Shown here: piece by piece, positions 41,386 to 63,676 of the stretch
Position numbering within the stretch: position 1 is the stretch's first letter
How the letters are laid out: every line of letters begins with the position of its first letter
Assembly (NCBI GenBank): GCA_045562675.1
Contig: JBJKVL010000008.1
Span: 131,775 to 195,774 of the forward strand
Length of the DNA: 64,000 nt
Direction: 5' to 3'
Origin: Dehalococcoidia bacterium
Lineage (GTDB): Bacteria; Chloroflexota; Dehalococcoidia; UBA2979
The notes under the pieces: generated by a model
The model's input: only the letters and a program-made list of their open reading frames with translations
Database searches by the model: none
What the model was told of the DNA's origin: nothing
Made by a program: the position numbers and the translations under genes

Positions 41386-41424
41386 AATCAGTTACTATAT
41401 ATATTAATTAAATTGGATTTATTA

Positions 41425-41877
41425 ATGATTAATTATAATAATAAAGTGGTTGGACAAAAAATTGATTTTGGTTCATTTGATGTCACAAAAGATTTAGTTG
41501 AATCTTATTGTTCATCAGTTAATGAAAACAACCCTTTGTATTTAGATGAATCAGTTGCAAAGCAATCTGTTTATGGCAAATTAATTGCTCCCCCTTTAAT
41601 TTTTGTTTCAGTGCAATTTGATGTCGAATTACCTGATCCAGAAGTAAATTTTGGTAATGCCCGTTTTTTAGCTGGTCAAAAAGTCGAGTCATTCCATCCA
41701 ATTTATATTGGAGATACTATTCAGGCAGTTGGTAGTATTACTGATGTCTATGAAAAGACAGGCAGGACAGGCACGATGGTCTTTGTAGTTAATCAAACAG
41801 AATATTTTAATCAAGACAATATACTCGTTGCAACTAGACAAGCATCTATGGTTCATAGGGAGGTTGAAAGTGAGTAA
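41425..41877 (+). CDS. MaoC-N/FAS1-like dehydratase hotdog subunit (partner of the next gene)
   Basis: About 150 aa. NPLYLDESVAKQSVYGKLIAPP pattern. Its stop overlaps the GTG start of the downstream gene. Confidence 0.65.
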   Translation: MINYNNKVVGQKIDFGSFDVTKDLVESYCSSVNENNPLYLDESVAKQSVYGKLIAPPLIFVSVQFDVELPDPEVNFGNARFLAGQKVESFHPIYIGDTIQAVGSITDVYEKTGRTGTMVFVVNQTEYFNQDNILVATRQASMVHREVESE

Positions 41878-42313
41878 TCAATTACTTTTTGCTGATGTTG
41901 AATTGGGTCAGGAATTTTCTGATAGTTATATCGCTAGTTCAGAAAAAGTACAGCAATTTCTTGATGCAAATAGGACCTTGGAAAGAACTGAAATCGAAGA
42001 TGGCAGATTCACAAGCAAGGAAGGTGCATCAACTTTAGGATTAGAAAAACCGATTTTGCCTGGAGTGATGAGTATGTCCATAATAACAAAACTAGTTACT
42101 GATATTATTGCCCCCAATGGCAAACTGCATAAATTTGATGCAAGCTTTAGAAGGCCAGTTTTTCATAATGATGCTTTGAAATTGTCTGCTTTAGTTGTTG
42201 ATACAATTATTGAAGAGGGAAAAGGCATTATTAAACTAGATGTTGCCCTTGAGAATGATAGAGGAGAAAAACCCTTACAAGGTACTGCGGTAGTTGAATT
42301 ACCAGTTAAATAA
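41870..42313 (+). CDS. MaoC-like hotdog dehydratase subunit
   Basis: GTG start at 41870 with GGAGG 8 nt upstream (VSNQLLFADVELGQEF...). The ORF-track start at 41828 overlaps the previous gene. Confidence 0.6.
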   Translation: MSNQLLFADVELGQEFSDSYIASSEKVQQFLDANRTLERTEIEDGRFTSKEGASTLGLEKPILPGVMSMSIITKLVTDIIAPNGKLHKFDASFRRPVFHNDALKLSALVVDTIIEEGKGIIKLDVALENDRGEKPLQGTAVVELPVK

Positions 42314-42315
42314 AG

Positions 42316-43104
42316 TTATTTTGATTTTTTCTTGCTAAATTCTTTTGGACCGGCCTTTGCTTCATCTGTTTGTCCAATAATCCATCTAATTGCATGCCCC
42401 ATCCTTAATGCTTCACTTAAAGACAGATCACGTGAATGATTTGCGATTTCTTTAGCACCAATTATTGCCATTGGTGCATTCGCAGCAATATCGCTAGCAA
42501 TTTCTTTTGCAACGTTTAATAAATTTTCAGGAGTGACAATTCTTGAAATAACTCCCCAATTCAATGCATCTTGTGCAGAGTAACTATTACCAGTTAGTAC
42601 CATTTCCATTGCAGGGGCTTGCGGAATAGCTTTTAAAATTCTTTGAATACCTCCACCACCAGGTACAAAACCTCGTTTTACTTCTGGTAATCCAAAAGAT
42701 GAACGTTCAGTTGCTATGCGGATATCACAAGTTAGTGCAAGTTCTAGGCCTCCTCCAAGGCAATATCCATCAATAGCAGCAATCATGGGTTTTCTTACGG
42801 GTATTGTAAAAAAATTATCAACAGGGTTATGATTAATGAATTCCTCAACAAGACCACCAGATGCTCCAGTTGAACCAGGTTGTGACCATTCTTTCAAATC
42901 AGCACCAGCGCTAAACGCTTTTCCTCCAGCTCCCGTAATTATTCCAACTTGAATGTCCGTATCATTATGAATTCTACTCAATGCATCCATTAGAATATCA
43001 CGAGCTGCGCTATTGAGTGCATTCATTGCTTGCGGCCTATTTAATGTAATAAGCCCAACTTTATCTTCAATTTCAAAAATCACTGGTGAATCATTATTCA
43101 TCAA
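42316..43104 (-). CDS. enoyl-CoA hydratase/isomerase (crotonase) family protein
   Basis: 262 aa. ITGAGGKAFSAGADL and AAIDGYCLGGGLELAL oxyanion-hole motifs. Confidence 0.88.
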   Translation of the reverse strand: MMNNDSPVIFEIEDKVGLITLNRPQAMNALNSAARDILMDALSRIHNDTDIQVGIITGAGGKAFSAGADLKEWSQPGSTGASGGLVEEFINHNPVDNFFTIPVRKPMIAAIDGYCLGGGLELALTCDIRIATERSSFGLPEVKRGFVPGGGGIQRILKAIPQAPAMEMVLTGNSYSAQDALNWGVISRIVTPENLLNVAKEIASDIAANAPMAIIGAKEIANHSRDLSLSEALRMGHAIRWIIGQTDEAKAGPKEFSKKKSK

Positions 43105-43121
43105 AAAACTCTCATAATTTT

Positions 43122-43535
43122 TTATAGCTTAATTTCTACTTCTACAGGTTTAAGCACGTCCCTATTGTCTTTTTCAACTTTAACATTAATTAAGACATTT
43201 AGCACAGTCATATTGTTCACTAATCTAGAATCCGCAACATCAAAATCAAATTTGACTGTTTCACCTATCATTACCATGGATAGATATCTTAGTTTCATTT
43301 TTACTATAGATGCATTTTGACCTAATTCTGATATCAAGTGTTTTGCAATTATTGCTCCAAACATTTGGCCATCAACAATTGGTTTATTAACGTTTAATTT
43401 TTCTTTTACAAATTGAGAATCATAATGAAATCTATGAAAATCCCAAGTTGCACCAGCATAAGACACTAATAACTGAGGTGTTATATGTATTGATAAACTT
43501 TGAATTGTCAATTTTTCTTTCATTATTATTCTCAA
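43122..43535 (-). CDS. MaoC-like hotdog dehydratase subunit
   Basis: 137 aa. WDFHRFHYDSQFVKE...IVDGQMF hydratase-2-like motif. The true start may be the internal ATG (MKEKL). Confidence 0.65.
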   Translation of the reverse strand: MRIIMKEKLTIQSLSIHITPQLLVSYAGATWDFHRFHYDSQFVKEKLNVNKPIVDGQMFGAIIAKHLISELGQNASIVKMKLRYLSMVMIGETVKFDFDVADSRLVNNMTVLNVLINVKVEKDNRDVLKPVEVEIKL

Positions 43536-44029
43536 TTAGTAGGCATGTATATCATGTCTTCAATATTTTCAGCTAATAAAACTTTGTCTTGATTAAAGTA
43601 TTGTATATTTGAAGAAATTATTAAAAATGCAGAATCTTTTCCTTGCTTCTCAATAATGTTTACAATTTTCCATTTAACCTCAAGCTTTGTTGTAGGAAGT
43701 AGTGGATGATAAATTTTATATTCATTGCCACCCCTCACAATGGAATATTCAACATCTAAGGGAATATCCCATGAATGACCAATATATCCTTGTTCATCCA
43801 TTGTTTTATTCATATATTGATTTGTTTCAAAAATAAATGTTGGCGGAGCCATTACGTTTGCCATTTTAGGCTGATCAAGTGACGATTGATTATCATCGAT
43901 TTGCTTTTTGTTATTAAGTGCTAATTCAAAATATCTGATAGAAGCAAAGCCAATTTCTTCATTAGCAAGATACGTTACCTCTTTTCCGATCATTTTCTTT
44001 ACCGCTTCAGATATTAAACTCATGCTCAT
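43532..44029 (-). CDS. MaoC-N/FAS1-like dehydratase hotdog subunit
   Basis: 165 aa. Overlaps the downstream MaoC gene by 4 nt. Same two-gene architecture as 41425-42313. Confidence 0.6.
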   Translation of the reverse strand: MSMSLISEAVKKMIGKEVTYLANEEIGFASIRYFELALNNKKQIDDNQSSLDQPKMANVMAPPTFIFETNQYMNKTMDEQGYIGHSWDIPLDVEYSIVRGGNEYKIYHPLLPTTKLEVKWKIVNIIEKQGKDSAFLIISSNIQYFNQDKVLLAENIEDMIYMPTN

Positions 44030-45144
44030 TCTTCCAATAGTGCTATTGTTTCAATTTCAATCATGAGGCCTTTTCTTATTAATCTTTCGCAGACAATTCC
44101 AGTAGAAGTTGGGAAAGGGGAGCTCAATAATTTTTTTCTAATTTTATCAGTTTTGGCGTAGCTAGGTAATCCGTCACTTGCAACATAATCTACTGTCCGA
44201 ACAATATTCTTTAAACTTCCACCACATGCCTTTAATATTTTATTGGTTTCTTTGAATATATATTCTGTTTGCTTTTCTATATCGCCTGGAAACAAAACAT
44301 CCCCAGTCGCATAATCAAAAGCAGCAAGCCCAGAAATAAAAATTAAATTGTTAGCTTTTATTGCTGGCGAAAAAGTAAGGGAGGGATGCCATTTTTTATA
44401 AGGGTTTACTATTTGCTTACTTGTTTTGGAGAGCGTAAAGTGTATTTGTATTAATTGATTATCTTCCATAAGCTTCTTCATAATGATTCCTGTAGATGCT
44501 GGATATGGTGCTGAAAAATACTTCTTTCTGATGGAATTAGTTTCTTTATATTCATGCAAAATATCTTTTCGAATAAATTCTGTTGTATTGACTACATTGT
44601 CCCAATTCATTCCTAATTGTTTAATTTCGTCATCAACCTCTTTATAAATATTTTCTGCTTGTTCTTCTAATGTTGCAAAAGTTTTACCAGTTTTAGAAAT
44701 ATACAAGAGGTCTCCTGAATTTGATAAATTGTTATAAATAATTTCAATTTCTATATGTGCTTCTTTTCTTAATAGTCGATTAGACATGATTTGAGTATGT
44801 GCAACTTGCTCATTTTGCAAAAATTTCTCTCTCGTCTGATTTATAAGTTCTATCTCTTCTGCAGCTTCTGGGGTGATGTATTCAATAAAATGCAAGATAC
44901 TTTGAGATTCAGATATTGCTATTATTGACTTAATTTTTTTGTATACAATATCTAGCTGCTCTTCTAATGTGCCTGCAGCTGAGACTATGTCCTTTTCTTT
45001 AATATATCTTGATGCAGTATGCCCAGATAAGAAAGTAAATTCTGGAGTATGCATTCCTAAGCTAAAACTATATCTTGAAGCGTCAAGCCAAGGAAATTTA
45101 TTTGGTTCCAATGCATATTGATGCTTGTTCATTGATTTATCCAC
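44026..45144 (-). CDS. triple-domain RidA/YjgF/RutC-family protein (three tandem Rid domains in one chain)
   Basis: 372 aa. Three successive Rid-like modules each end in an x-IEIE/IQIH-x strand: ...FLSGHTAS...LEEQLDIVYKKIKSI...AHIEIEIIY; ...LYISKTGKTFATLEEQAENIYKEV...PASTGIIMKKL...IQIHFTL; ...IFISGLAAFD...IEKQTEYIFKETNKILKACGGSL...PTSTGIVCERL...IEIETIAL. Confidence 0.7.
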   Translation of the reverse strand: MDKSMNKHQYALEPNKFPWLDASRYSFSLGMHTPEFTFLSGHTASRYIKEKDIVSAAGTLEEQLDIVYKKIKSIIAISESQSILHFIEYITPEAAEEIELINQTREKFLQNEQVAHTQIMSNRLLRKEAHIEIEIIYNNLSNSGDLLYISKTGKTFATLEEQAENIYKEVDDEIKQLGMNWDNVVNTTEFIRKDILHEYKETNSIRKKYFSAPYPASTGIIMKKLMEDNQLIQIHFTLSKTSKQIVNPYKKWHPSLTFSPAIKANNLIFISGLAAFDYATGDVLFPGDIEKQTEYIFKETNKILKACGGSLKNIVRTVDYVASDGLPSYAKTDKIRKKLLSSPFPTSTGIVCERLIRKGLMIEIETIALLEE

Positions 45145-45947
45145 TTTGGTTTTCGTTTTTCTTTATATGCATCCAAAGCTTCTGTTGCATCAAGAGTCTC
45201 TCGATTAATTTTTTGTAGTTCATAGATTTTTTTCATTGATGAAGATAAATCATTTTCCAAGGCATGTGTTATTGATTTCTTAAGTTCTTTTGCTGTAAGT
45301 GGCGGCACATAAGTTGCTATTTCTTCAGCAATTTCATAACATCGCTTCATTAAATTTTTTTCAGAGGTTATTTCATTTATAAAACCAAGCTTCAGAGCTT
45401 CTTCTGCTGATATGGTTGATGCTGTCATTGCCCATTGGAATGTTTTAGGATAACCAAGAATATCCAATATTAATTTCAAGCTTCCGTCATCAGGCAAAAT
45501 GCCTCTTCTGGCAAAAACCCATGCAAATTTTGATTGTTCATTTGCAATTCTAATATCACATGCAGCTGCAAGGCCTATGCCTGAACCAACTGCTGCACCA
45601 TTTATACCACCAATAATCGGTTTTTGTATATTTCTCATGAGATAGGTAACTGCTCGAATATCGGAGATGTGTTCAGGTAAATCATTAGTAGTAATTGGCT
45701 CTTCTGGTTCTAGTGCTTTGCCCTCTTGAACCATTTTTTTTATGTTGCCACCACCACAAAATACATCACCAACAGCAGAAAAAATGATCACTCGAACGCT
45801 ATCATTTGTATCATATTCTGTAAGTACATTGATAATTTCTTGATTCATATCAAAATTGACAGCATTTTTATTTACTGGATCATTAATCAGTATTTCTGCT
45901 ATGCCAATATCGCTAATGTGGGTCGTAATATATTTATTTTCTTTCAT
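45129..45947 (-). CDS. enoyl-CoA hydratase/isomerase (crotonase) family protein
   Basis: 272 aa. FSAVGDVFCGGGNI and GGINGAAVGSGIGLAAACD motifs. Confidence 0.85.
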   Translation of the reverse strand: MKENKYITTHISDIGIAEILINDPVNKNAVNFDMNQEIINVLTEYDTNDSVRVIIFSAVGDVFCGGGNIKKMVQEGKALEPEEPITTNDLPEHISDIRAVTYLMRNIQKPIIGGINGAAVGSGIGLAAACDIRIANEQSKFAWVFARRGILPDDGSLKLILDILGYPKTFQWAMTASTISAEEALKLGFINEITSEKNLMKRCYEIAEEIATYVPPLTAKELKKSITHALENDLSSSMKKIYELQKINRETLDATEALDAYKEKRKPKWINQ

Positions 45948-45970
45948 GAGTTCATTTTATCGAAAAATGA

Positions 45971-48379
45971 TTAATTAAATATGTTTTTTTCTTCTAATTC
46001 TTCTATTTCTTTGCTGGATAGATGCAGGACATTTGCAAGAATTTCTTGAGTATGCTCACCTAATAATGGTGCTGGATTTAATAATGATTTTAAATTGTCG
46101 ATGTGCCAAGGTACGCCAGGATGCTTAACTTTTCCTCCAGTTGGATGTTCGGTTTCAATAATAAATTCTCTATGTAAGAGTTGAGGATCAGATAATAAGT
46201 CATCTGGCTGTAAAATTGGACCTGATTTAATTCCTTTTTTTTGTAACTTTGTTGTTAATTCAAGGTTAGTAAATGATTGCGTCCAAGATGCAATTATATT
46301 TTCTAATTCATCTTCATGTTTTTTTCTATTCTCATTTTTATTGAATTTATTTGAGTTAAGGATTTCACTAGCTATACAATCTTTTAATTGCTCCCATTCT
46401 TCTTCAGAAGTTATTGAAATTGCAATCCATCGATCATAACCTTTAGTCGGAAAAAAACCATGCGGTGCATACTGATCACTTCTATTACCAATTCTGCTAT
46501 GCTGGACATTGTTTAATGTCGTATCGATAATAGCATTTGGAATTAAAGTGAGCATTGGTTCAAACATTGAACCATCTATGTATTGCCCTGTGTTTGTTAA
46601 TTGAGCATCGATTAGTGATGCTATAATTGCGAAAACACCATAAGACCCTGCCAATGGATCTGGCATCACCGCTCCTAAAATTCTAGGCATGCCATCTTGA
46701 TAGCCAGTTAGCTCAGCTACTCCACTAAATAAATTAATTGCACTATGTAATCCGCCATGACTTGCCATTGGCCCACTTCTACCAAAGGCTCCAAGTGATA
46801 ATTGTACAATTTTAGGGTTTAATTCTCTAATGGTTTCTTTAGAAAGACCTAGCTTACTCATTACGCCTGTTTTGAAGTTATCTACCACTACATCAGCAGT
46901 TTTAATAATTTCTTTTGCAAGCTTTCGAGCTTCTTCGTTTTCTAGATCTAGCTGGATACTTTTTTTACCTTCGTTTAATAAATTGAAGTGGCCACTGTTA
47001 TTATAGTGGTCCTCATTATTAGCAAACGGAGCTGTCACGCGAGTAGTCATATGTTTGCTAGTTTCAAATAGAATAACTTCTGCACCCATGCGTGACAGCC
47101 ATTGCGTTGCAAATGGAAGAGCAACCACTTGTCCGAAGTCAGCTATTCTTATTCCTTGCAAAGGCAGCGTTGATTCTTTATTTTCTATTTCATGCAAAAT
47201 AAGAGGATGCCTCTCGGATGACCATTGTAGATCATTATTAGATTGGTCTGGGTTTATTGAATGAATTTGAATTGGTGTTTTTTCTAATTTCATTTGTGGA
47301 CCAGGCATACTAAATTTCTTTTTGTTGATATTTAGATTTAAAATACTTTCACGTTGTTTAACATGCTCAGAATTAAGCATGTCGCGAATACTGTAATATG
47401 CAAAAAATGGCAAACCATTTTTATCAGCTAATTGAATAATCTCTTTTCCAGATAACTCCATAGTCCAATTGATAATTAATTGCCTCAAGGCATCCCAATT
47501 GGCTGTTCGATCGTACACATTAGCAAAAACTTCAGAATCTGCCCAATCTGGATTATCCATCATAATTTTCAATTTCTCCCATTGATGATCCCAAGGTGCA
47601 GCAATTGCAACATACCCATCTTTACAAGGAACATAATAATTTGGCATTCTTGATAATGACGTTGGCAATCGTCCAATAAGTAATTCCCCATAGGCCCAGG
47701 CAGTTAAATCCCTTTGTTCATAAGAAGCGACTGCTTCTTGTATGCTGACATCTACATGATGCCCATTCCCACTGTTGATTCTCTCAAATAATGCTAGGAT
47801 CGTTGCATCAGCACCTACAATTCCAGCAATGGATTCAGCAATATTTGTATTTGGATGTAATGGTGGCTCATTTTCTTGGTCAGTAACTACATCTGGTACT
47901 CCAGGAGAAGCATATGCCATGCCACTCATAGCATATACAATTAATTCATCAGCAAAAAAATCTGAATAAGGACCATCTAAGCCAAATGGGGTAATTGTAG
48001 TAAAAACTAATTTTTTAAATTGTGTAGTAATTGTTGCTGGGGTTAGCCCGATTGCATCTAAATCAGCAAATGAAAAATCTGTAATCAAAATATCAACAGT
48101 ATCTAAAATATCCAATAATTTTTCAAAGTCAGGTTTGTCATAAACATCAAGAGTAACTGATCGTTTATTTGTACTCGTATAGATAAACGATCCACTAAAT
48201 TTTAGGTCCTCTTGATTATCGGGGAATGGTCCCATTTTTCTTAGTGGATGGCCATCGTGATTCTCGATAATGACAACCTCTGCGCCATAATCGGCAAATT
48301 GCTTTGCTGCAATTGCACCGCTGAATCCTTTTGTTAATTCAAGGACACGTAATCCTTTTAGTGCAGAAGAGTCACTCAT
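45971..48379 (-). CDS. tandem-domain family III (CaiB/BaiF) CoA-transferase (two complete domains fused)
   Basis: About 802 aa. Domain 1 begins LKGLRVLELTKGFSGAIAAKQFADYGAEVVIIE. Domain 2 begins LQGIRIADFGQVVALPFATQWLSRMGAEVILFE. Start taken at ATG 48379 (MSDSSALKG). The ORF-track start at 48454 overlaps the upstream gene. Confidence 0.8.
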   Translation of the reverse strand: MSDSSALKGLRVLELTKGFSGAIAAKQFADYGAEVVIIENHDGHPLRKMGPFPDNQEDLKFSGSFIYTSTNKRSVTLDVYDKPDFEKLLDILDTVDILITDFSFADLDAIGLTPATITTQFKKLVFTTITPFGLDGPYSDFFADELIVYAMSGMAYASPGVPDVVTDQENEPPLHPNTNIAESIAGIVGADATILALFERINSGNGHHVDVSIQEAVASYEQRDLTAWAYGELLIGRLPTSLSRMPNYYVPCKDGYVAIAAPWDHQWEKLKIMMDNPDWADSEVFANVYDRTANWDALRQLIINWTMELSGKEIIQLADKNGLPFFAYYSIRDMLNSEHVKQRESILNLNINKKKFSMPGPQMKLEKTPIQIHSINPDQSNNDLQWSSERHPLILHEIENKESTLPLQGIRIADFGQVVALPFATQWLSRMGAEVILFETSKHMTTRVTAPFANNEDHYNNSGHFNLLNEGKKSIQLDLENEEARKLAKEIIKTADVVVDNFKTGVMSKLGLSKETIRELNPKIVQLSLGAFGRSGPMASHGGLHSAINLFSGVAELTGYQDGMPRILGAVMPDPLAGSYGVFAIIASLIDAQLTNTGQYIDGSMFEPMLTLIPNAIIDTTLNNVQHSRIGNRSDQYAPHGFFPTKGYDRWIAISITSEEEWEQLKDCIASEILNSNKFNKNENRKKHEDELENIIASWTQSFTNLELTTKLQKKGIKSGPILQPDDLLSDPQLLHREFIIETEHPTGGKVKHPGVPWHIDNLKSLLNPAPLLGEHTQEILANVLHLSSKEIEELEEKNIFN

Positions 48380-49259
48380 TTTCTTCCTCGTCAGGCAACA
48401 AGGCAGATTTTGACCAACTTCTTGGATCTCTTGATGGCCATGAATCATCTTCAACTTGATTTAAAAATTTTTCAATCATTTGATTAAATAGATCAGGCTC
48501 TTCAAGATTTACGGTATGTCCAGTATTTGGAACAATAAATAATCCAGATGTAGGAATACATCTTTTCATAAAAATCGATGGTTCAAGACAGGGCTCATCT
48601 TCATCACCAGTAATTATTAATGCAGGTATATTAATTGCTTTCATTTCTTTTTCTAAAGAAAGAATTGAAGGTCGATTTCTTTGAACTCCTAACATTGTAT
48701 TAGCATGTCCTAAAGATGAAGAATTTTGAAAAAGTCTCTTAAATTCTTCCCAAGCTTTTCGGTCTTTGTTTTGAAGTTGAACTCTCGTAGCACTGATAGT
48801 ATAAACATCTCCAAATTTTTCGATACCTTCTTGAAGTATTCGATTTGCAACATGCTCTGCATCTTTTTCAAAATTACTACGGTCTTTTGTGCTGCCATAT
48901 CCAACGCCCGCAATTGTTATAGATAAACATCTTTCAGGGAACTGAATCCCAAACAAAAGAGTAGCATAACCGCCCATCGACAATCCTATAATGTGTGCTT
49001 TTTCAATATTTAATTCATCTAATATAGATAGAATATCCTGTACAGCAATGTCTTGCGAATAACTTTTCTCTGATTCTGGTACATCAGATGGAGGATAGCC
49101 ACGAGCATTATAGGTAATTGCTTGATATTTTTCAGAAAAATATTCAACTTGCTTTGCCCAACTAGCGTGCTCTCCAGCAAATTCATGTACAAATACTACT
49201 GGAATTCCTGAACCAGTAACTTCGTAATATAATTGCACGTCATTATTTGTTAGCGACAT
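48372..49259 (-). CDS. alpha/beta-fold hydrolase (enol-lactonase/esterase-like)
   Basis: 295 aa. HEFAGE oxyanion region, nucleophile elbow GLSMGG, and C-terminal NTGHTVNLEEP. Confidence 0.82.
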   Translation of the reverse strand: MSLTNNDVQLYYEVTGSGIPVVFVHEFAGEHASWAKQVEYFSEKYQAITYNARGYPPSDVPESEKSYSQDIAVQDILSILDELNIEKAHIIGLSMGGYATLLFGIQFPERCLSITIAGVGYGSTKDRSNFEKDAEHVANRILQEGIEKFGDVYTISATRVQLQNKDRKAWEEFKRLFQNSSSLGHANTMLGVQRNRPSILSLEKEMKAINIPALIITGDEDEPCLEPSIFMKRCIPTSGLFIVPNTGHTVNLEEPDLFNQMIEKFLNQVEDDSWPSRDPRSWSKSALLPDEEENE

Positions 49260-49287
49260 TGACTATTTTTCTCTTTTTAATTATGAA

Positions 49288-50289: not shown

Positions 50290-50346
50290 AAATTTCTCCT
50301 TAATTGTTATTGAATAAAGATAGCTTGATTATCTACACATTGTACA

Positions 50347-51435: not shown

Positions 51436-51495
51436 TATTTTTTCCTTTCAGATGGTTCGAATGTTAACAGTTTGATAATATGTTGTCTGTTGAAT

Positions 51496-52353: not shown

Positions 52354-52469
52354 AATAATTCTCCAAAACTAATATTACATTAAACTACTAGTGATTGACA
52401 TTAATTTATTTGAATTTTCATAATTGAAGTGTTTAAATGGATTCTGTAGTATTTTAGAAAGATTAACTT

Positions 52470-55173: not shown

Positions 55174-55256
55174 CAGTACCTTGCTTTGATTTTTGCAGAA
55201 AAACCATCTCAAATGATAAAGTAAAGAAAATCATGCTTCAAAAAAATATGAAAATT

Positions 55257-56604: not shown

Positions 56605-57654
56605 ATGAATAAAAAACATTTTACTGTACTTGAAACAAATGCTTCTCAGGAAATAGAGATTGAATTACGCAATGATCAATTGTGGATTGATGCAAATAAA
56701 TTATCAAATAATTTAGATTGGACCTTAAAGCCAGAAGGGCTTTGTAAAGGCGAAATTTGTGTGCCTGTAAGAGAGCCAAATTTATTATCAGAGGAGAATC
56801 AAATTAACATGACACAATTTGCAAAAGAACTTAATCGTCCAATTGTAATTGAATTAGACAAGGATGTTGTTTTTTTAGGAGAATCAGCGACTGATCGCTC
56901 CGCTGCATTATATGCACATCAAGCACCAGATTTTGAATTACCAGATCTTGATGGAAATATGCATCGCTTATCAGAACATTTCGGTAAAAAACTTTGCCTC
57001 GTTGTGCATGCATCCTGGTGAGGTTGCAGACAAGATTTGCCAGTTTGGCAAGAAATATATACAGAATTATCAAAAAACAATTTTACAGTTTTTTCTGTAA
57101 TGGAAGATAAAAATATTGATGATGCTAAGCCATGGATAGAAGCTGCAAATGCAGATTTTCCATGTACTGTTGATACCAAACATATTGTTTCTGATTTATA
57201 TAATATGTTTAATGTCCCATCAATAGTGTGGATCAATGAGTCAGGTAAAATTGTTCGTCCTAATGATGTTGTGGTTATGAATGAGAGTGGTGCAAAATTA
57301 GTAAAAGTTGACCCTGAAGAATACATTGAAAAAATTCGTAATTGGGTACTTCATGATCATCCTGCTGTTTCGTCTGAGGAAGAATTTTTTAAATTAAAAA
57401 ATGAACGTTCTGCTACAGATGAAGAACAGTTAGCCCGAGCAGAATTTGCAATTGGTGAATGGCTATATATTAATGGAGAAAAGGATTTAGCAGCCAAGCA
57501 TTTTGAACAAGCAACTCAATTATCTCCTGCTGATATAATGATTCAACGAGGCACTATGTCAATGCGAGGCATGGACCCAATGAAGGATTATGGACCTATT
57601 GCTGGTGAAATTATTCAGAAAGGGCATAAGCTCTATACGCCAATTCGTGATTAA
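56605..57654 (+). CDS. thioredoxin-fold thiol:disulfide oxidoreductase (TlpA/ResA/redoxin-like) selenoprotein; in-frame TGA (Sec) at 57019-57021
   Basis: ORFs 56605-57021 and 57037-57654 are in the same frame, separated only by TGA plus 5 sense codons. The joined sequence reads ...APDFELPDLDGNMHRLSEHFGKKLCLVVHASW-U-GCRQDLPVWQEIYTELSKNNFTVFSV...VPSIVWINESGKIV. That is the TlpA/ResA pattern with TGA at the first redox Cys. 349 codons. Confidence 0.82.
57036..57052 (+). promoter_or_regulatory. candidate bacterial SECIS-like hairpin downstream of the redoxin UGA
   Basis: TTTGCCA (57036-42) pairs with TGGCAAG (57046-52). The stem includes 3 G:C pairs and one G:U pair. Apical loop is GUU, about 21 nt after the UGA. 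Folded by eye. Confidence 0.5.
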
Positions 57655-57668: not shown

Positions 57669-58478
57669 ATGGCATACGCAGATTATGAAACACTTGTTAT
57701 CGACATAAAGGATTATGTCGCAACTATTAGAATGAATCGTCCTGAAAAATTAAATGCTTTTGATCAAGTTATGGGCAAAGAACTGATTCGTGTTACTGAT
57801 GAATTAAAAAATGACAATGATGTGCGGTGTACTATTTTGACAGGAACGGGTAGAGGTTTTTGTTCAGGCGTTGATTTAGGACAAGATAGAACACCTGCTG
57901 AAGAAAATATTTTTAGTAGGGATATGCTTGATGAGCATGGTTTTAGTGGAAGGGTTGCACTAGCTTGGAACGAATTAGACAAACCTACAATTGCTGCAGT
58001 GAATGGAGTTGCAGCTGGCGGCGGACTTGGTCTAGCAATGCTTCAAGATATTCGAGTTGCATGTGATTCAGCAAGATTGATTCCAATTTTTGGTCGAAGA
58101 GGCATAGCACCGGAACTAGGCATGAGTTGGACCACTCCAAATATTATTGGGTATAGTAAAACTTTGGAATGGTTTTATACTGGTGATGAATTGTCTGGAA
58201 AACAAGCACATGAACTTGGAATTGCAAATCATGTTGTACCTGATGACCAATTGATGAACTTTTCCTTTGAGCTAGCTACCAAGATAGCTGAATGGAGCTC
58301 TCCTATAGCAACGAGACTCACAAAACGAACAGTTTATGCTAGCCTGAATGCAGATAGTTTAAGGCAACATTTAATTTATGAGGCTATGAATGTAGGGCTT
58401 GGTAGCTCAACAGAAGATACAGTTGAAGGCCGCACTTCAATAATTGAAAAACGTAAACCTAATTTTCAGGGTAGATAA
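57669..58478 (+). CDS. enoyl-CoA hydratase/isomerase (crotonase) family protein
   Basis: 269 aa. LTGTGRGFCSGVDL and AAVNGVAAGGGLGLAM motifs. Confidence 0.87.
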   Translation: MAYADYETLVIDIKDYVATIRMNRPEKLNAFDQVMGKELIRVTDELKNDNDVRCTILTGTGRGFCSGVDLGQDRTPAEENIFSRDMLDEHGFSGRVALAWNELDKPTIAAVNGVAAGGGLGLAMLQDIRVACDSARLIPIFGRRGIAPELGMSWTTPNIIGYSKTLEWFYTGDELSGKQAHELGIANHVVPDDQLMNFSFELATKIAEWSSPIATRLTKRTVYASLNADSLRQHLIYEAMNVGLGSSTEDTVEGRTSIIEKRKPNFQGR

Positions 58479-58485
58479 ACTTAAA

Positions 58486-59319
58486 TTAATCTAAATAATT
58501 ATTAATAATTTCAGCCCATTGTTCTGGATTTTTATCCAAATTTAATAGCGAGGGACTTTCTGGCCTAATTCCCTCAGCATTTGATATTCCATTTACATAA
58601 TCATCATGTTGTGCAGCTAAAAAACTACCACTGCCATGTACGATTAATGTTGGCACAGTAATTTTTTTAATTTCTTCAAAAAAATCATATTTTAACATAC
58701 AAAATGGTGCGGCACCTTCCCATCCAAAGTCACCATAAATTTCTTCAACATTTTCACGTGAATCAAGAATTAAATGGTCAATTACTTTTTCCATTACTCT
58801 ATTAAGGTCTGATTCTGGATCTGTACCACCACTTTTTTCCCAAATTTCCATTAAATGACTGCCATCATTTTTCACTGGATAGTATCTATGAGCATTAAAG
58901 AGTCGATCACGACCTCCGTCTATAGCTGCATAGTTGAATGGCTCCTGTACAATTAACTTATTGATTCTATTACTATGCAGCGCAGCAAATGCAACTGAAA
59001 CAGCAGATCCTGTATGAGTAGAAAAAATGTCTGTTTTGTCAATCCCTAATTCATCAATTAACCAAAGTACAGTTTGAGCATATTGATTTAAGTCTGTATA
59101 AGGCTTTGGAGGTCTTGCAGATTGGCCACAGCCCATCATAGTCATTGCAATCACTCTTCTATCTTTTGCAACTCTCCACATGTGACGTGAATATTGTCTA
59201 GATGATTGAGGTAATCCATGTAGTAATAACAATGGTTTACCTTTACCAAGTTCTCTATATTCTATTTGGCCATCTGGGGTTTGCATCATATGTCTTTTGG
59301 GCATTGATTTTTCATCCAT
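58486..59319 (-). CDS. alpha/beta-fold protein, paralog of 59434-60213 with an atypical nucleophile elbow
   Basis: 277 aa. LLLHGLPQSS region. At the elbow position the sequence is S-T-H-T-G-S, against G-L-S-T-G-S in the neighbouring paralog (aligned by eye). Confidence 0.6.
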   Translation of the reverse strand: MDEKSMPKRHMMQTPDGQIEYRELGKGKPLLLLHGLPQSSRQYSRHMWRVAKDRRVIAMTMMGCGQSARPPKPYTDLNQYAQTVLWLIDELGIDKTDIFSTHTGSAVSVAFAALHSNRINKLIVQEPFNYAAIDGGRDRLFNAHRYYPVKNDGSHLMEIWEKSGGTDPESDLNRVMEKVIDHLILDSRENVEEIYGDFGWEGAAPFCMLKYDFFEEIKKITVPTLIVHGSGSFLAAQHDDYVNGISNAEGIRPESPSLLNLDKNPEQWAEIINNYLD

Positions 59320-59433
59320 ATTTTTCCTCCTGTTTTAAGGTTTCACCATTCTAGCATATTTCAGAGAAAAGATAAAATTCATAATGTAAAATTAAACACA
59401 CACGATGGCTTTTAATTCTATTAAAATGATTAC

Positions 59434-60213
59434 ATGAAAATATTAAGAAATTTCATTGATGTAAAAGGTAATCAGGTTCATTATCGCCAGTGTGGTACTG
59501 GACATCCTATAATTTTGTTGCATATGACTCCTGGCTCTTCAATGATTTATGAAGAATGCATGAAATTGCTTGCAGAATATGATTATCAGGTTTTTGCCAT
59601 TGATACTCCTGGTTACGGTGACAGTGATTCGATTGGTGAAAATAAGACAATAGAAGACTACAGTGAGATTATTAGTGAAGTTATTAAAACATTAAGATTA
59701 AAAAAAGTACATTTAGTTGGACTAAGCACAGGTAGTGTTATTGCAGCAGCTACTGCAATATATTACAGTGATTTTATTGATAGATTAATCCTTGTGGAGC
59801 CAGGGATCTTCAACACTCCAGATAGACAAAAGCGTGGATATCATGGCGTTAAGATTGGACTTGATAAAGATGGACAATATTTTGTAAATAGATGGAAACA
59901 GATTAGCAATGGGTTTGGAGGCAACCTGACCAATGACCAGGCATTTGTTTTATTTTTAGACGCTTTACGATCACACAAACATCAGCATGAAGCATACCAA
60001 GCACTGATTTATTATGATTTACTTAATGATCTACCAAAAATTACCGTTCCTACTCTTTTAATTAGTGGTGCTTTATCTACTCGTGAAGAGCCTATGGAAA
60101 CATTTAGTCAAAAAATAAATGATTCATCAATTGCAATAATTGAAAATGCAGCCAATGCACCTCCTCTCGAGCAACCACAAAAATTTGTTGAAACTGTATT
60201 ACAATGGCTATAG
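59434..60213 (+). CDS. alpha/beta-fold hydrolase
   Basis: 259 aa. ILLHMTPGSS, nucleophile elbow VGLSTGS, and a C-terminal acid/His region. Confidence 0.75.
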   Translation: MKILRNFIDVKGNQVHYRQCGTGHPIILLHMTPGSSMIYEECMKLLAEYDYQVFAIDTPGYGDSDSIGENKTIEDYSEIISEVIKTLRLKKVHLVGLSTGSVIAAATAIYYSDFIDRLILVEPGIFNTPDRQKRGYHGVKIGLDKDGQYFVNRWKQISNGFGGNLTNDQAFVLFLDALRSHKHQHEAYQALIYYDLLNDLPKITVPTLLISGALSTREEPMETFSQKINDSSIAIIENAANAPPLEQPQKFVETVLQWL

Positions 60214-61052
60214 ATTTACAAGTTCATTTTTGGGAACAACATTCTAAAGAACGCCCGCATCTCAATATTGCTATACCCAACTTGCCTTATCCGTTTGGCC
60301 CAGATGAAATGTTGCCTCTTATGAAAGATGCAGGGGTAGAGCATGTTGTCATAGTTCCTCCAGGATTTATGGGTGATAATAATAGCTACGCATTAGAATG
60401 CGTAGAGCAATACGCCGACAAATTTTCTGTTATGGGTTTAGTTGACATAAATAATATACGATTGAAAGAGAATATTTCAAATTGGCTTAATCAACCAGGC
60501 ATGATAGGCATTAGAACTCATCTTAGTAAAAGAATGCGTGATCGATGGTCAAGTGAGCAACAAGCGGATATTTTATGGCAATCATGTAGTGAATATCAAA
60601 TTCCTGTAGCAGTTTTTGCAGGAGGTGAAACTAGTTATTTAGAAAGTGTGTTAAAGAGGTATCCTAGTCTTTCTTTAATTATTGATCATTTTGGGCTTGG
60701 TCCGATAGATGCTAGTATAAAAAACGGAGTAGACTATCAGTCTTTTCGCGAGATGATGTCATTAAGTAAATATTCAAATGTGTATATCAAGGTTTCAACA
60801 TTACCTGTTCGGTCCTCTTCTGATTATCCATTTACTGATATGCATCAAGTTGTTCAGGAAACTATTAAGTCGTTTCGACCAGAACGAATGTTGTGGGCTA
60901 CTGATTTTACACAATCACTAAATAGAAATGGTTCGACATATATTGAAGAAGTTAATTTTTGGCGTTCAGGCATGCCCTTCCTCACGCAAACTGATATCGA
61001 TGCCATACTATCTATGAATGCAAAAAAAATTTTTCCACAATTAAATAATTAG
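60204..61052 (+). CDS. amidohydrolase-2 (ACMSD/TIM-barrel metal-dependent hydrolase/decarboxylase) family protein
   Basis: 282 aa. N-terminal IDLQVHFW, IIDHFG, and C-terminal WATDFTQ are typical of Amidohydro_2. Confidence 0.7.
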   Translation: MAIDLQVHFWEQHSKERPHLNIAIPNLPYPFGPDEMLPLMKDAGVEHVVIVPPGFMGDNNSYALECVEQYADKFSVMGLVDINNIRLKENISNWLNQPGMIGIRTHLSKRMRDRWSSEQQADILWQSCSEYQIPVAVFAGGETSYLESVLKRYPSLSLIIDHFGLGPIDASIKNGVDYQSFREMMSLSKYSNVYIKVSTLPVRSSSDYPFTDMHQVVQETIKSFRPERMLWATDFTQSLNRNGSTYIEEVNFWRSGMPFLTQTDIDAILSMNAKKIFPQLNN

Positions 61053-61648
61053 TTTTGGTTCTTTAGTGTTTCAATAAATAGGTTTCTTTTATTTGTGCTA
61101 TAAAGCTCTTTAAAATTATCTTTGAACTTATTTTTTTCGGGTTCCATAAATAGCTCCACAAAACTTAATTGATTGCTTGCAAGAATTTTTGGTATAGCTT
61201 TTTCCCATTTTTCAATGGAATTAAATGAAAATATTGATTCATAACCAGCAGCTTTTGCCATATCGGCAAATGAAATTGTTTTATTCCCAGGAATTATGAT
61301 GCTGCCATTTGTTTCATATGTGCCATTGATACATACGCAATGAATTAAATTTTTTGGCTTGATATTTCCAATTGTTACTAATGTGCCTAAATTCATTAAT
61401 AAGCTTCCATCACCATCTAAAACAATAACTCGTTTATTTGGTTTACCTAGAGCTAATCCTAATGCATGAGAAGAACCTTGCCCCATTGCACCAGTAAATG
61501 TGTAATTTAAATCTGAATTTGATATGTTTGCCCATGTTGTTGCTGCTTGATATACGGCGACAACAATTTCGTCTGTACGTACATTATTTAATAATTGGAG
61601 TGCTTCTAATCTGTCCATTGATTTTTTTTCATTGTGGCTCACTGCCAA
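61049..61648 (-). CDS. ThDP-dependent decarboxylase beta subunit (sulfopyruvate/phosphonopyruvate decarboxylase-like, ComE-type)
   Basis: 199 aa. ThDP-binding motif LDGDGSLLMNLGTLVTIG...N. The start may be the internal ATG at 61618. Confidence 0.7.
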   Translation of the reverse strand: MAVSHNEKKSMDRLEALQLLNNVRTDEIVVAVYQAATTWANISNSDLNYTFTGAMGQGSSHALGLALGKPNKRVIVLDGDGSLLMNLGTLVTIGNIKPKNLIHCVCINGTYETNGSIIIPGNKTISFADMAKAAGYESIFSFNSIEKWEKAIPKILASNQLSFVELFMEPEKNKFKDNFKELYSTNKRNLFIETLKNQN

Positions 61649-62132
61649 TTAAAACAACATGAGGCTTGCATGCATTGAATGATTTATTTATTAAACTGGT
61701 TATGCTTTGTTCATCTCCTGATTGATCTATGTAGCTGTATTCAATATTCATTGCTTCAAGTATAGGTTTTATAATTTTTAATCCGTAACGATTTGAATCA
61801 TTTGGATCTGTTCCTGATTCATGCCTCAACAATCCTACTAGTAGGAATGTTGGATTGCCTATTTCCACACTAACAGCTCGTAAACAATTAATTGAATCTA
61901 ATAAACCAGTATGCTGGATTAAAATCACAGATTTTTTGCCTGCAGCATATAACCCAGCAGATATTGATATTGCTTCATCTTCTTTGCAGACTTGAATCAC
62001 TTTTATTTCATTGTTATTTATTAGGGGCTTTAATATGTTTTCACTTGTTGTGATATCGGGAACTGACAAGACATATTCTATATTAGATTGATTTAGTTGT
62101 TTTATTATTTCTGTGCCAACAAGTTTTTGCAT
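61629..62132 (-). CDS. ThDP-dependent decarboxylase alpha subunit (ComD-type, pyrimidine-binding domain)
   Basis: 167 aa. VLSVPDITTSE...CKEDEAISISAGLYAAGKKSVILIQHTGL. Confidence 0.7.
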   Translation of the reverse strand: MQKLVGTEIIKQLNQSNIEYVLSVPDITTSENILKPLINNNEIKVIQVCKEDEAISISAGLYAAGKKSVILIQHTGLLDSINCLRAVSVEIGNPTFLLVGLLRHESGTDPNDSNRYGLKIIKPILEAMNIEYSYIDQSGDEQSITSLINKSFNACKPHVVLIGSEPQ

Positions 62133-62195
62133 ATTTTTATATTAGTTTGTGTAAGATATAATTTTCAACTATATAATGTTTCAATAAGGTTAAGT

Positions 62196-62981
62196 ATGCA
62201 TATAAATTTTTCTGATCAAGTTGCTGTTATTACTGGTGGATCAAAAGGAATAGGCCTTGCAACAGCAAAGCAATTTGTACAATCTGGAGCGAAAGTTGTG
62301 ATCTGCAGTAGATCACAAGATAATCTGGATAATGCAGTTAATGAAATTGAGCTTGCGCAAAATGTATTAGCAATACAATGCGACATTGGTAGTTCAAAAG
62401 ATGTTGATAGTTTATTTGAAAAGACATTAGCTACATTTGGCAAGATTGATATCTTAATAAATAATGCTGCTCCAACAAGCTGGGGTCCTTTAATTAATGA
62501 AGTCGATGAAGCAGCATGGCTAGAAGCTGTTAATGCAAAATTTATTGGCTATATTAGATGTACCAAGCTTGCTGTAGAAGATATGCTGCTTCGTAAAAGT
62601 GGCAGAATTATTAATATTGTAGGCATGGGTGGCAGAGGGCCAAACAAACGGTATTTGACTGGGGGACCAATTAATGCTGCGGTTCTCTCATTAACAAAAT
62701 CCTTAGCAAATAATTATGGTCCTGATGGGATTTTGGTTACTGCACTGTCACCTGGTCCTATTGATACTGGCCATCATGAAAATATATTAAATTGGATGGC
62801 TCAAGAATCAGGAATATCGTTTTCTCAAGCAAGAAACAATTTCCTGAATGGTATCCCTGTGCGCAGATATGGCACTCCTGATGAAGTTGCAAATACAATA
62901 GCATTTTTAGCTTCTGATAAAGCTAGTTATATTACTGGCTCTGAATTCTTGGTAGACGGTGGTCGATTTCGCAGCTTGTAA
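62196..62981 (+). CDS. short-chain dehydrogenase/reductase (SDR) family oxidoreductase
   Basis: TGGSKGIG cofactor motif, INNAA, and SPGPIDT. The active-site region is RYLTGGPINAAVLSLTK, non-classical with FabI-like spacing by eye. Start taken at ATG 62196. The ORF track starts at 62097. Confidence 0.78.
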   Translation: MHINFSDQVAVITGGSKGIGLATAKQFVQSGAKVVICSRSQDNLDNAVNEIELAQNVLAIQCDIGSSKDVDSLFEKTLATFGKIDILINNAAPTSWGPLINEVDEAAWLEAVNAKFIGYIRCTKLAVEDMLLRKSGRIINIVGMGGRGPNKRYLTGGPINAAVLSLTKSLANNYGPDGILVTALSPGPIDTGHHENILNWMAQESGISFSQARNNFLNGIPVRRYGTPDEVANTIAFLASDKASYITGSEFLVDGGRFRSL

Positions 62982-62995
62982 TTTAGGAAGAAATA

Positions 62996-63676
62996 ATGGA
63001 TAAAAAACATCTTGTAATTGCAACTGATAATGTATCTTTCAAAAATCATTTTCGTGATTTTTTTGATCAAGACAATTATGAAGTTTCTTATTTTGATTTA
63101 AATGTTGAAACAAATTTAACTGATGACATACTTGTTGATTCTAAAAGCACAGCTAATATTCAGAATGCAATCCAACAAGCATCTCTTCAAAGAGGAACAG
63201 TTGATGCATTTGTTAATTACTCTAATTTTATTCATTTAGACTATTTTTCTAATAATTATGAAGCATTAATGGAATATTGGGATTACAAAGTTCTAGGTTG
63301 TTTGAGATTAATCAGAGAAATCGCTGAAAATATGAAAAGTAATAATAAGGGCTCAATAGTTAATATTATTAATATACAATCAAGATTTCCAGAATTAAAT
63401 GATGCTATTGCGCTGTCAGCAGATATGGCTATTTTAAATTTAACAAAAGGTGTTGCTGCAGATTTGATTGACTATGGCGTTAAATGTAATTCCATTTCCT
63501 TAGGTGATTTTGAATTTAATAAATTTAATGAAAATGAGAAAGAGTTGATTCCAGCAAAAAGACTTGGTCAACCAATTGAACTAATGAACGTGCTACGATT
63601 TATTTTGTCTGATGAAAATCAGTATCTTGTTGGAGAAAATATTAATTTGGACGGAGGCTATTCGCGTCAATTATAA
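62996..63676 (+). CDS. degenerate SDR-fold protein (no glycine-rich dinucleotide motif, no obvious Tyr/Lys catalytic pair)
   Basis: 226 aa. N-terminus KHLVIATDNVSFKNHF replaces TGxxxGxG. The SDR-like C-terminal half is ALSADMAILNLTKGVAADLIDYGVKCNSISLG...GENINLDGG. Confidence 0.5.
   Translation: MDKKHLVIATDNVSFKNHFRDFFDQDNYEVSYFDLNVETNLTDDILVDSKSTANIQNAIQQASLQRGTVDAFVNYSNFIHLDYFSNNYEALMEYWDYKVLGCLRLIREIAENMKSNNKGSIVNIINIQSRFPELNDAIALSADMAILNLTKGVAADLIDYGVKCNSISLGDFEFNKFNENEKELIPAKRLGQPIELMNVLRFILSDENQYLVGENINLDGGYSRQL

Follow-up and report, generated by a model that had tools for sequence, protein, structure and literature searches.

Paralogs of a few coenzyme A (CoA)-handling families crowd about 22 kb of a small bacterial genome, and the locus raises the question of whether they form one degradative pathway or several neighboring ones. 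The locus, here called the island, spans positions 41413-63676 of a 64,000-nt stretch of a Dehalococcoidia bacterium (assembly GCA_045562675.1, contig JBJKVL010000008.1); this whole stretch is the window (G000:C8:131775-195774, where G000 is the host assembly and C8 the host contig), and genes are given in window coordinates. Families were called with Pfam and subfamilies with NCBIfam equivalog models and their curated cut-offs. An earlier note on this DNA had described the island as a CoA-dependent catabolic cluster that matches no characterized pathway, and our analysis bears this out, no protein being found at an equivalog cut-off. The open reading frames (ORFs) that it named all exist at the positions it gave, and Pfam confirmed each family.

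The credible functional unit that the sequence predicts is smaller than the island: an operon of ten minus-strand genes (42316-52353). The balance of evidence tips toward an operon that degrades a carboxylic acid as its CoA thioester, a judgment that covers the whole favored model, including the route proposed below; the acid is probably substituted, unsaturated, or dicarboxylic. Independent evidence for unity is confined to the ten-gene operon and its sub-modules and does not extend to the 22-kb island.

The Ten-Gene Operon

In the direction of transcription, the operon encodes a double-hotdog hydratase-2-like protein of 285 amino acids (g12, 51496-52353); two Bac_luciferase proteins of the luciferase-like monooxygenase (LLM) type, LLM2 (50347-51435, flavin mononucleotide [FMN] type) and LLM1 (49288-50289, F420 type); the alpha/beta hydrolase ABH1 (48372-49259; PF00561, 71.6 bits); an 827-amino-acid fused double family-III CoA-transferase (g08, 45971-48454; PF02515 twice, 533.6 bits); the crotonase ECH2 (45129-45947; PF00378, 157.8 bits); 3xRidA, a 372-amino-acid protein with three Ribonuc_L-PSP stretches (g06, 44026-45144; PF01042); the MaoC-N (FAS1_DH_region) and MaoC hotdog subunits of pair b (g05, 43532-44029; PF13452, 28.2 bits; and g04, 43122-43535; PF01575, 47.2 bits); and the crotonase ECH1 (42316-43104; PF00378, 191 bits). 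Adjacent genes are spaced -83 to +60 nt apart and overlap at three junctions by 4-16 nt, and g05 shares 4-nt overlaps with both of its neighbors (g04 and g06). The real start of g08 probably lies near 48379.

A sliding-window identity comparison with G001, a different species of the host genus, revealed a near-identical block of 9.0 kb (42416-51408; about 99.7% identity) that runs from ECH1 to LLM2. Windows inside the block are 99.2%-100% identical save for one patch, and outside it identity is 63%-85% (locally 92%). The breakpoints are sharp (42415/42563 and 51408/51409), one at the 3' end of ECH1 and the other 27 nt inside the start of LLM2, so that nine operon genes are covered. Differences within the block amount to 25 isolated mismatches and a diverged 118-nt patch toward the 3' end of g08 (46064-46181), which holds 29 mismatches to G001. 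This pattern points to a recent transfer of the nine genes between species as one piece, presumably by homologous exchange. The block was matched at G001:C27 (loci L022/L025). The patch looks like a micro-mosaic and is possibly a second short recombination tract.

Distribution of the operon within the order is restricted. 3xRidA and the double hotdog are shared by the same eight of 99 genomes, which belong to genera g1 and g16 only, and the double hotdog is thus found in two of the 21 genera. All of these relatives are metagenome-assembled genomes (MAGs); as kin they are not independent, and the phyletic pattern is to be counted as one or two evolutionary events.

Conservation of gene order had been proposed as a check on the island as a whole. 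The island is indeed collinear within the host genus (G001 and G003) and in a single genus beyond it, g16 (five genomes), at 35%-63% amino acid identity, these latter genomes having a guanine-plus-cytosine (GC) content of 73%-75% and sizes of 2-3.7 Mb. The result is not specific: in a control, about 75 kb, starting about 8 kb ahead of the window and ending with it, proved equally collinear with the g16 genome G103 (G000:C8:123580-196996 versus G103:C1:2681554-2812727). Synteny was therefore rejected as an argument for a 22-kb unit. Two other genera lose synteny immediately past the conserved gene at 37093-38832. The gene order of about 75 kb has been kept between two genera of one family despite extreme compositional divergence (33% versus about 73% GC).

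The g16 operons carry four genes inserted between the same genes: the A subunit of a 3-oxoacid (family-I) CoA-transferase, which scores 217 bits and lies above its cut-off; an acyl-CoA dehydrogenase (ACAD) adjoining the CoA-transferase; a TRZ/ATZ-like deaminase-type amidohydrolase; and a DUF1761 gene. The presence of the ACAD and the 3-oxoacid CoA-transferase subunit in an orthologous operon supports the catabolic character of the operon described here. It also bears on the earlier note's statement that the window has no acyl-CoA dehydrogenase, thiolase, or ring-cleaving dioxygenase. The first two absences stand, as a scan of C8:131775-195774 for PF00441 (ACAD) and PF00108 (thiolase) gave no match, and dioxygenases were not searched for; because an ACAD sits inside the g16 operon, the absence of one from the window is a trait of the streamlined genus and not a defining mark of the pathway. 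Among the Pfam matches of the island there is no thiolase or aldolase family.

A 3xRidA/MaoC-N/MaoC Module

Proteins of this kind are routinely annotated as "enamine deaminase," but 3xRidA does not carry the residue that such an activity requires. Its third domain reads PFPTSTG where RidA reads PYPARS, so that Ser replaces the imine-deaminase Arg, and by eye the Arg is missing from domains 1 and 2 as well. Arg105 of Salmonella RidA is essential for imine hydrolysis (PMC4433059), and "3x-RidA" fusions had already been named, and the Ser-for-Arg variant noted, by Niehaus et al. (2015; PMC4433059).

An AlphaFold2 model of 3xRidA built with 41 homologs (predicted local distance difference test [pLDDT] 92.6, predicted template-modeling score [pTM] 0.92) shows three repeated units. 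The only full-length Foldseek matches of this model are chorismatases (5a3k, 4bps, and 5ag3), with E values of 3e-15 to 4e-14, template-modeling (TM) scores of 0.55-0.63, 344-346 aligned columns, and 14%-16% identity; the top match has TM scores of 0.57/0.63 over 346 columns. Other matches cover a single Rid domain each, and a phmmer search of the PDB returned no chorismatase among its matches. The predicted model thus looks like a chorismatase-like, single-chain pseudo-trimer, a likeness that may lie in the shared pseudo-trimer architecture and not in a shared function. Arg105, Arg126, Glu132, Arg206, and Arg336 (numbered by alignment A2) are invariant in the 3xRidA family.

The context of this protein is conserved well beyond the host order. 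In seven of seven contexts of full-length 3xRidA homologs of at least 28% identity (28%-34%), a FAS1_DH_region gene directly follows 3xRidA, and in six of the seven a MaoC gene comes next. Relatives of these homologs are recorded in Bradyrhizobium, Nitrospinae, Betaproteobacteria, and Acidimicrobiales; homolog P0144 is carried by a Bradyrhizobium strain. The module's neighbors in these contexts include ACADs, acyl-CoA ligases, thiolase/DUF35 or FadB plus thiolase, double-size alpha/beta hydrolases, and old yellow enzymes. An eighth context (L078) holds a crotonase (ECH) gene, MaoC-N, MaoC, two CoA-transferase genes, 3xRidA, an LLM2-like gene (37% identity), and an Amidohydro_2 gene. The MaoC-N/MaoC pair was not present in the contexts of the two most distant homologs, and an LLM is present in two of the ten contexts looked up. 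One locus (L084, from a JGI 3300076002 contig with homolog P0125) places 3xRidA/MaoC-N with a mesaconyl-CoA-hydratase-like gene, an LLM, an HpcH/HpaI-type lyase, a family-III CoA-transferase, and a PrpD fragment, a gene set reminiscent of C5-dicarboxylate (itaconate, mesaconate, and citramalate) metabolism.

Our literature searches found no description of a 3xRidA/MaoC-N/MaoC adjacency or module, and they found nothing specific to the operon. What is new is the gene context of 3xRidA; the 3x-RidA architecture and the fused double CoA-transferase, which is DddD-like, are already known. Adjacency to MaoC across phyla gives this Rid subgroup a functional context that can be tested.

Predicted Activities of the Other Operon Proteins

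The two halves of the CoA-transferase g08 have different relatives. The best PDB match of the N-half is chain A of 9fn0 (1.2e-25), a heteromeric family-III benzylsuccinate CoA-transferase that we take to be BbsEF; the C-half matches SUGCT (9br7, 3e-50) slightly better than chain B of 9fn0 (6e-49). Against the succinate-glutarate and succinyl-CoA:mesaconate models, the C-half scores 350 bits (NF052585; cut-off 750) and 331 bits (NF041294; cut-off 700). An unfused adjacent gene pair in L078 is collinear with the two halves at 41% identity to each, which identifies g08 as a fused enzyme of the heterodimer type. The predicted catalytic acidic residues are Glu207 in the N-half and Asp599, which is conserved, in the C-half. 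Position 207 is Asp in the g16 orthologs and Glu in the unfused homolog, and the idea of an inactive N-domain was rejected since the catalytic position is always acidic (Glu or Asp).

Alignment shows that ECH1 keeps both canonical hydratase glutamates (GGGLELA and FGLPEV); it scores 224 bits against the EchA19 model (cut-off 400), below equivalog level. ECH2 and the crotonase ECH3, which lies outside the operon (57669-58478, plus strand; PF00378, 166 bits), have Gly and Phe at the hydratase-glutamate positions and share a G-I-x-P-(D/E)-x-G motif, as G-I-L-P-D-D-G in ECH2 and G-I-A-P-E-L-G in ECH3. The PaaG and alternative oxepin-CoA hydrolase models match ECH2 below cut-off, and ECH3 scores 164 bits against the PaaG model (cut-off 345). 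Likeness to PaaG-type crotonases underlies the reading of this motif as that of an isomerase, and both proteins are probably isomerase-type crotonases.

The family of the double hotdog g12 is small: an exhaustive search gave 67 matches at E≤1e-3 among 1.84 billion representatives, and a narrower homolog search gave seven close relatives. The family is marked by the motif F-E-G-P-G-E-x-N-x-H-T, a hydratase-2 motif with Glu for Asp, in which His196 is near-invariant. A phmmer search of g12 against the PDB gave no match; the family profile matches the structures of MaoC, MFE-2 hydratase 2, and HtdX, and meets ChsH1/ChsH2 at an E value of about 0.3. Identity as a mesaconyl- or itaconyl-CoA hydratase was rejected, the profile finding generic MaoC/MFE-2 proteins, with beta-methylmalyl-CoA dehydratase at an E value of 0.09. 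A paralog of g12 (34% identity) is encoded outside the window at G000:C8:62737-63645, beside two ACAD genes (C8:63669-66235) and near a CofD-family gene (C8:66354-67163); it may belong to a second, ACAD-containing version of the chemistry.

The earlier note had called both luciferase-like proteins monooxygenases, which fits one of them. LLM2 is FMN-monooxygenase-like: the best 25 of its 27 NCBIfam matches are headed by the MupA/Atu3671 and luciferase alpha classes, below cut-off, and its nearest solved structures are 8cbb (6e-30), 7bip, and PuwE; the genome encodes three flavin reductases. LLM1 looks F420- and Mer-like. Of the 21 NCBIfam matches listed for it, all under cut-off, TIGR03617 and Mer rank first and most of the rest are F420 classes, and its nearest solved structures are the F420-dependent methylenetetrahydromethanopterin reductases (Mer; 8qpl, 2.8e-27). 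The solved structures nearest to ABH1 are esterases and the meta-cleavage product hydrolase CumD, and ABH1 is matched below cut-off by the PcaD, MenH, and RutD models; a hydrolase of esterase, lactonase, or C-C hydrolase type is predicted.

Two genes on the plus strand diverge from the operon. The first (52470-53981; PF00496, 205.5 bits) encodes a homolog of the family-5 solute-binding proteins that begins MSEKLIIVTPP and has no hydrophobic leader. Its ortholog in G103 (L057:17579-19210; 48% identity) likewise has no hydrophobic leader after the first Met, MTARELRVAISP, with the start codon not fixed. The protein may be cytoplasmic. The second (53989-55173; PF07690, 149.3 bits) encodes a major facilitator superfamily (MFS) permease of monocarboxylate or oxalate:formate type that scores 149.6 bits against the SfMCT model (cut-off 320). 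A near-consensus sigma-70-like site, TTGACA-18-CATAAT, at 52395-52424 in the 116-nt divergent intergenic region is correctly placed upstream of these two genes and was the sole exception in a promoter scan. The island contains no gene for a regulator.

A Hypothetical Route for Carboxylate Degradation

We infer from these features a route whose order of steps, CoA donor, cofactor use, and substrate class are all conditional. The acid would be imported by the MFS permease, possibly with participation of the leaderless binding-protein homolog, and activated without ATP by the fused family-III CoA-transferase, the nearest characterized relatives of which move CoA from succinyl-CoA to dicarboxylates. 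The glutamate-less crotonase ECH2 would then shift a double bond. Hydration would fall to ECH1 ((S)-type) and to the (R)-type hotdogs, namely the double hotdog and the MaoC-N/MaoC heteromer, with the chorismatase-like 3xRidA working together with the latter. LLM1, as an F420-type dehydrogenase or reductase, could carry out an alcohol/ketone step and LLM2, as an FMN-type monooxygenase, an oxygenation, after which ABH1 would cleave the product hydrolytically, not thiolytically. Additional hydrolase, isomerase, and decarboxylase steps may be contributed by genes on the far side of the permease (55.5-63.7 kb).

Several observations weigh against this model. As none of the island proteins reaches an equivalog cut-off, enzymatic assignments are all at the superfamily level, and relatives of about 30% identity are the basis for guessing at CoA donor and substrate. 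The likeness of 3xRidA to chorismatases, at such low identity and TM scores of about 0.6, may mean a shared three-domain architecture alone. Use of F420 by the host is plausible and uncertain: the genome encodes CofE (F420 glutamyl ligase, 248 bits) and a CofD-family protein, but neither CofG nor CofH (Fo synthase) turned up in the assembly, which is 79% complete. The cell either scavenges Fo or carries the two genes in the part that is missing. The near-identity of the 9.0-kb block could reflect an assembly or binning fault, or a chimeric contig, in one MAG. A scan for promoters and terminators gave counts at or below shuffle expectation and was uninformative, as is the collinearity of the island with genus g16, given that about 75 kb is equally collinear.

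A bolder proposal, which we hold to be doubtful taken as a whole, is that 3xRidA is an obligate partner of the heteromeric MaoC hydratase on CoA esters, acting in an undescribed route with an F420-dependent LLM and a fused CoA-transferase, and that the trio is a widespread, unrecognized acyl-CoA module through which abundant streamlined marine Chloroflexi would consume one particular constituent of marine dissolved organic matter (DOM). A cell with a genome of about 1.3 Mb retains nothing it can do without; that it has kept the ten-gene operon, and that the operon has recently been exchanged between species, suggests that the substrate is important in the natural habitat. For learning which DOM carboxylates are consumed, expressible targets are at hand in the fused CoA-transferase, the leaderless binding protein, and the two LLMs.

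The Surrounding Island and the Host Genome

The host is an AncK29 or genome-streamlined SAR202 (gsSAR202)-type marine member of the Dehalococcoidia (Chloroflexi). To our knowledge, no gsSAR202-type bacterium has been cultured. The host assembly comprises 1.07 Mb at about 33% GC and is 79% complete; the genome is of roughly 1.3 Mb. Its genus also takes in Chloroflexi bacterium Anck29-46 (QGNP01) and Dehalococcoidia bacterium cluster2_bin.142; the former (1.11 Mb, 32% GC) was assigned to the AncK29 clade beside SAR202 by Colatriano et al. (2018; PMC6123686), and a 2025 paper in the ISME Journal cites an Arctic MAG of that size (1.11 Mbp) from an earlier study as gsSAR202 (PMC11994032). On average, over 90% of the SAR202 community of the sunlit ocean is reported to consist of genome-streamlined members (PMC11994032). 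With such MAGs in the same genus, the analogy to SAR202 drawn in the earlier note is taxonomically apt (PMC6123686; PMC11994032). The genome is paralog-rich despite the small assembly: there are about 19-24 family-III CoA-transferase loci among some 1,000 ORFs, about 13 crotonases (by blastp against about 1,013 ORFs), 11 LLMs (by Pfam), and, all outside the window, 12 ACAD matches and one clear thiolase. Enrichment of the island is real even against that background, with three crotonases seen in its 25 genes versus about 0.3 expected (roughly ten-fold) and two LLMs versus about 0.3 (roughly seven-fold).

To the left of the operon, on the plus strand, lies a second MaoC-N/MaoC pair (pair a), made up of a MaoC-N-type subunit (41413-41877; PF13452 FAS1_DH_region, 84.8 bits), whose best named NCBIfam match is HadA (35 bits; cut-off 180), and an overlapping MaoC subunit (41828-42313; PF01575, 34.5 bits). 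Their g16 orthologs share 50%-54% and 56%-57% identity, respectively.

To the right of the permease, most genes are on the plus strand. An ORF at 55523-56065 (weak PF00561) encodes the C-terminal two-thirds of an alpha/beta hydrolase, its N-terminal part looking degenerate; ORF and Pfam match alike start at the nucleophile elbow. The matching ORF in G001 and G003 is preceded by about 375 nt with no called N-terminal part, and the orthologous position in G018 has a longer alpha/beta-hydrolase match of about 270 amino acids with 24% identity to ABH1. The fragment in 55200-56065 could represent a degeneration shared by the streamlined genus or a mis-called start. It is followed by a hexapeptide-repeat, gamma-carbonic-anhydrase-like protein (56065-56583; PF00132, 70.2 bits) that is probably unrelated housekeeping, and by a thioredoxin-fold frame with an in-frame TGA (56605-57654; AhpC/TSA on both halves), a putative selenoprotein. 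The latter has no tblastn match in the syntenic loci of G018, G103, and G102 (genus g16), and G018 has a CbiM/ABC cobalt-uptake pair at its position. Beyond ECH3 come the alpha/beta hydrolases ABH2 (58486-59319, minus strand; PF00561, 48.8 bits) and ABH3 (59434-60213, plus strand; PF00561, 65.8 bits), and an Amidohydrolase-2 (60204-61052, plus strand; PF04909, 116 bits) that is closest by sequence to a lactonase subgroup, the L-fucono-1,5-lactonase and 4-sulfomuconolactone hydrolase models matching at about 1e-14, below cut-off. A split thiamine diphosphate (ThDP) decarboxylase is encoded on the minus strand (alpha, 61629-62132; beta, 61049-61648; PF02775 and PF02776) and is matched below cut-off by the sulfopyruvate and phosphonopyruvate decarboxylase models. 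The last two genes, on the plus strand, are SDR1 (62097-62981; PF13561, 182 bits) and its shorter SDR-fold partner SDR2 (62996-63676; PF13561, 73.2 bits), for which no ortholog was found in stretches of 50 kb (G103) and 40 kb (G102) around the thiamine pyrophosphate genes.

Such an inventory makes it a serious possibility, if one that falls short of probable, that the 22 kb is a set of neighboring, independent catabolic units in a paralog-dense genome and not one pathway: the operon, the binding-protein/MFS pair, ECH3 with the alpha/beta hydrolases, the Amidohydro_2, the ThDP enzyme, and the SDR pair. The genes occupy both strands in at least six transcription units and are interrupted by the hexapeptide protein and the thioredoxin-fold selenoprotein; the abundance of family-III CoA-transferases, crotonases, and LLMs throughout the genome, and a g16 collinearity common to about 75 kb, fit this account, and the transferred block ends at the operon. 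It leaves the operon itself intact, which is independently supported, and it is opposed by the recurrence of Amidohydro_2, alpha/beta-hydrolase, and ThDP enzymes near 3xRidA homologs elsewhere. The claim of a 22-kb island is therefore best divided. It is supported for the ten-gene operon, with its packing, block exchange, and module; it is weaker for the whole, where collinearity is non-specific and extends over about 75 kb.

Alternative Substrates

In a scheme along the lines of the earlier note, the substrate would be an alicyclic carboxylate, whether terpenoid, sterol-derived, or like the carboxyl-rich alicyclic molecules (CRAM), degraded by CoA transfer, ring opening by a type-II Baeyer-Villiger LLM, lactone hydrolysis by an alpha/beta hydrolase or the Amidohydro_2, and decarboxylation. 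The FMN-type similarity of LLM2 and the nearby presence of four alpha/beta hydrolases and a lactonase-closest Amidohydro_2 agree with such a scheme, and the same logic has been proposed for the FMNOs of SAR202 (Landry et al. 2017; PMC5395668). Parallels to steroid clusters are also found, all below cut-off: EchA19-, HadA-, and HsaD-like matches and an Rv3520c-type F420 LLM. We nevertheless consider this scheme unlikely. Only one of the two LLMs is monooxygenase-like, the other being Mer/F420-like, and no feature singles LLM2 out as a Baeyer-Villiger enzyme; the genes for the lactonase-like and ThDP proteins belong to separate transcription units and are tied to the operon by no more than general macro-synteny; and the widely kept partners of 3xRidA/MaoC are ACADs, CoA ligases, and thiolases, with an LLM in the same two of ten contexts.

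Quite improbable, in our estimate, is a nitrogen-containing substrate, such as an amide, a lactam carboxylate, or an amino acid of the beta or omega type. Dehydrogenation or ring cleavage of its CoA ester would yield an enamine- or imine-CoA handled by the Rid-fold protein, in loose analogy with the Rut pathway; the Arg would have given way to Ser because the free carboxylate is now a thioester. An LLM, an alpha/beta hydrolase, and a Rid-fold protein do co-occur here as RutA, RutD, and RutC do, genes for amidase, gamma-glutamyltranspeptidase, CN_hydrolase, and class-III aminotransferase and branched-chain-amino-acid-type ATP-binding cassette (ABC) systems recur near 3xRidA homologs, and the g16 operon contains the TRZ/ATZ-like amidohydrolase. 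Set against this, the streamlined operon has neither amidase nor aminotransferase, the Arg essential for imine hydrolysis is absent (PMC4433059), there is no RutA model among the NCBIfam matches considered for the LLMs, and no isochorismatase family (RutB) occurs in the island Pfam results. A Rut-like pathway proper was rejected, the catalytic Arg being missing and the Rut models failing (RutC, TIGR03610, 54.3 bits versus 169.1; RutD, TIGR03611, 62.9 versus 238.5).

Comparison with Known Systems

The CoA-transferase of the favored model, in which the operon degrades an acid as its CoA thioester, invites comparison with several systems. DddD, the dimethylsulfoniopropionate (DMSP) CoA-transferase/lyase, has a tandem double family-III architecture, which g08 resembles in its two CoA_transf_3 stretches. 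Unlike DddD loci, the island has no ddd-type neighbors among its Pfam results, its transporter is of the MFS and not the BCCT family, and dehydrogenases of the DddA/DddC type are absent; moreover, SAR202-type genomes hold dozens of such fused paralogs. DddD is the top Swiss-Prot match of some SAR202 CoA-transferases (Landry et al. 2017; PMC5395668). The same authors described SAR202 paralog expansions of FMNO, CaiB/BaiF, SDR, and enoyl-CoA hydratase (Landry et al. 2017; PMC5395668), which are the same families in the same kind of organism, here with the expansion kept in a genome of about 1.3 Mb; what was described there are family counts and not this operon, which occurs in two of 21 genera.

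Dicarboxylate CoA-transferases (the succinate-hydroxymethylglutarate enzyme SUGCT, the succinate-glutarate CaiB-type enzyme, and succinyl-CoA:mesaconate CoA-transferase) are the best sequence matches of the C-domain of g08, but they are single-domain homodimers, and g08 scores far below their equivalog cut-offs. Benzylsuccinate CoA-transferase (9fn0) is a family-III enzyme of two different subunits, with chain A resembling the N-half and chain B the C-half of g08. The window further resembles the Bbs beta-oxidation pathway in having a crotonase and two paired SDR-fold proteins, one of them shorter and with the lower score. It differs in that CoA-transferase identity is about 30%, at superfamily level, with the subunits fused; there is neither a BbsG-type ACAD nor a BbsAB thiolase/DUF35; the SDR pair lies 10 kb away in another transcription unit; and the host is an aerobic marine bacterium, not an anaerobic toluene degrader.

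In the comparison with steroid side-chain degradation (EchA19, ChsH1/ChsH2-Ltp2, FadE), the equivalog level of EchA19 is not reached and no ChsH-type hydratase with an Ltp2 aldolase is present. HadAB/HadBC and ChsH1-ChsH2 are likewise two-gene MaoC-N plus MaoC modules with translational coupling, and a weak HadA match was noted above; scores here are far below cut-off, the window lacks an Ltp2 aldolase or DUF35 domain, and those systems have no 3xRidA partner. The 3xRidA protein itself shares three Rid domains per chain, and the Ser-for-Arg variant, with the 3x-RidA proteins of Niehaus et al. (2015), and its model shares the pseudo-trimeric YjgF fold with the chorismatases FkbO, Hyg5, and XanB2, from which it differs in its 14%-16% identity and the lack of a match at the sequence level. 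What sets it apart from both groups is its place in the genome, as the constant neighbor of a MaoC-N/MaoC pair in acyl-CoA clusters.

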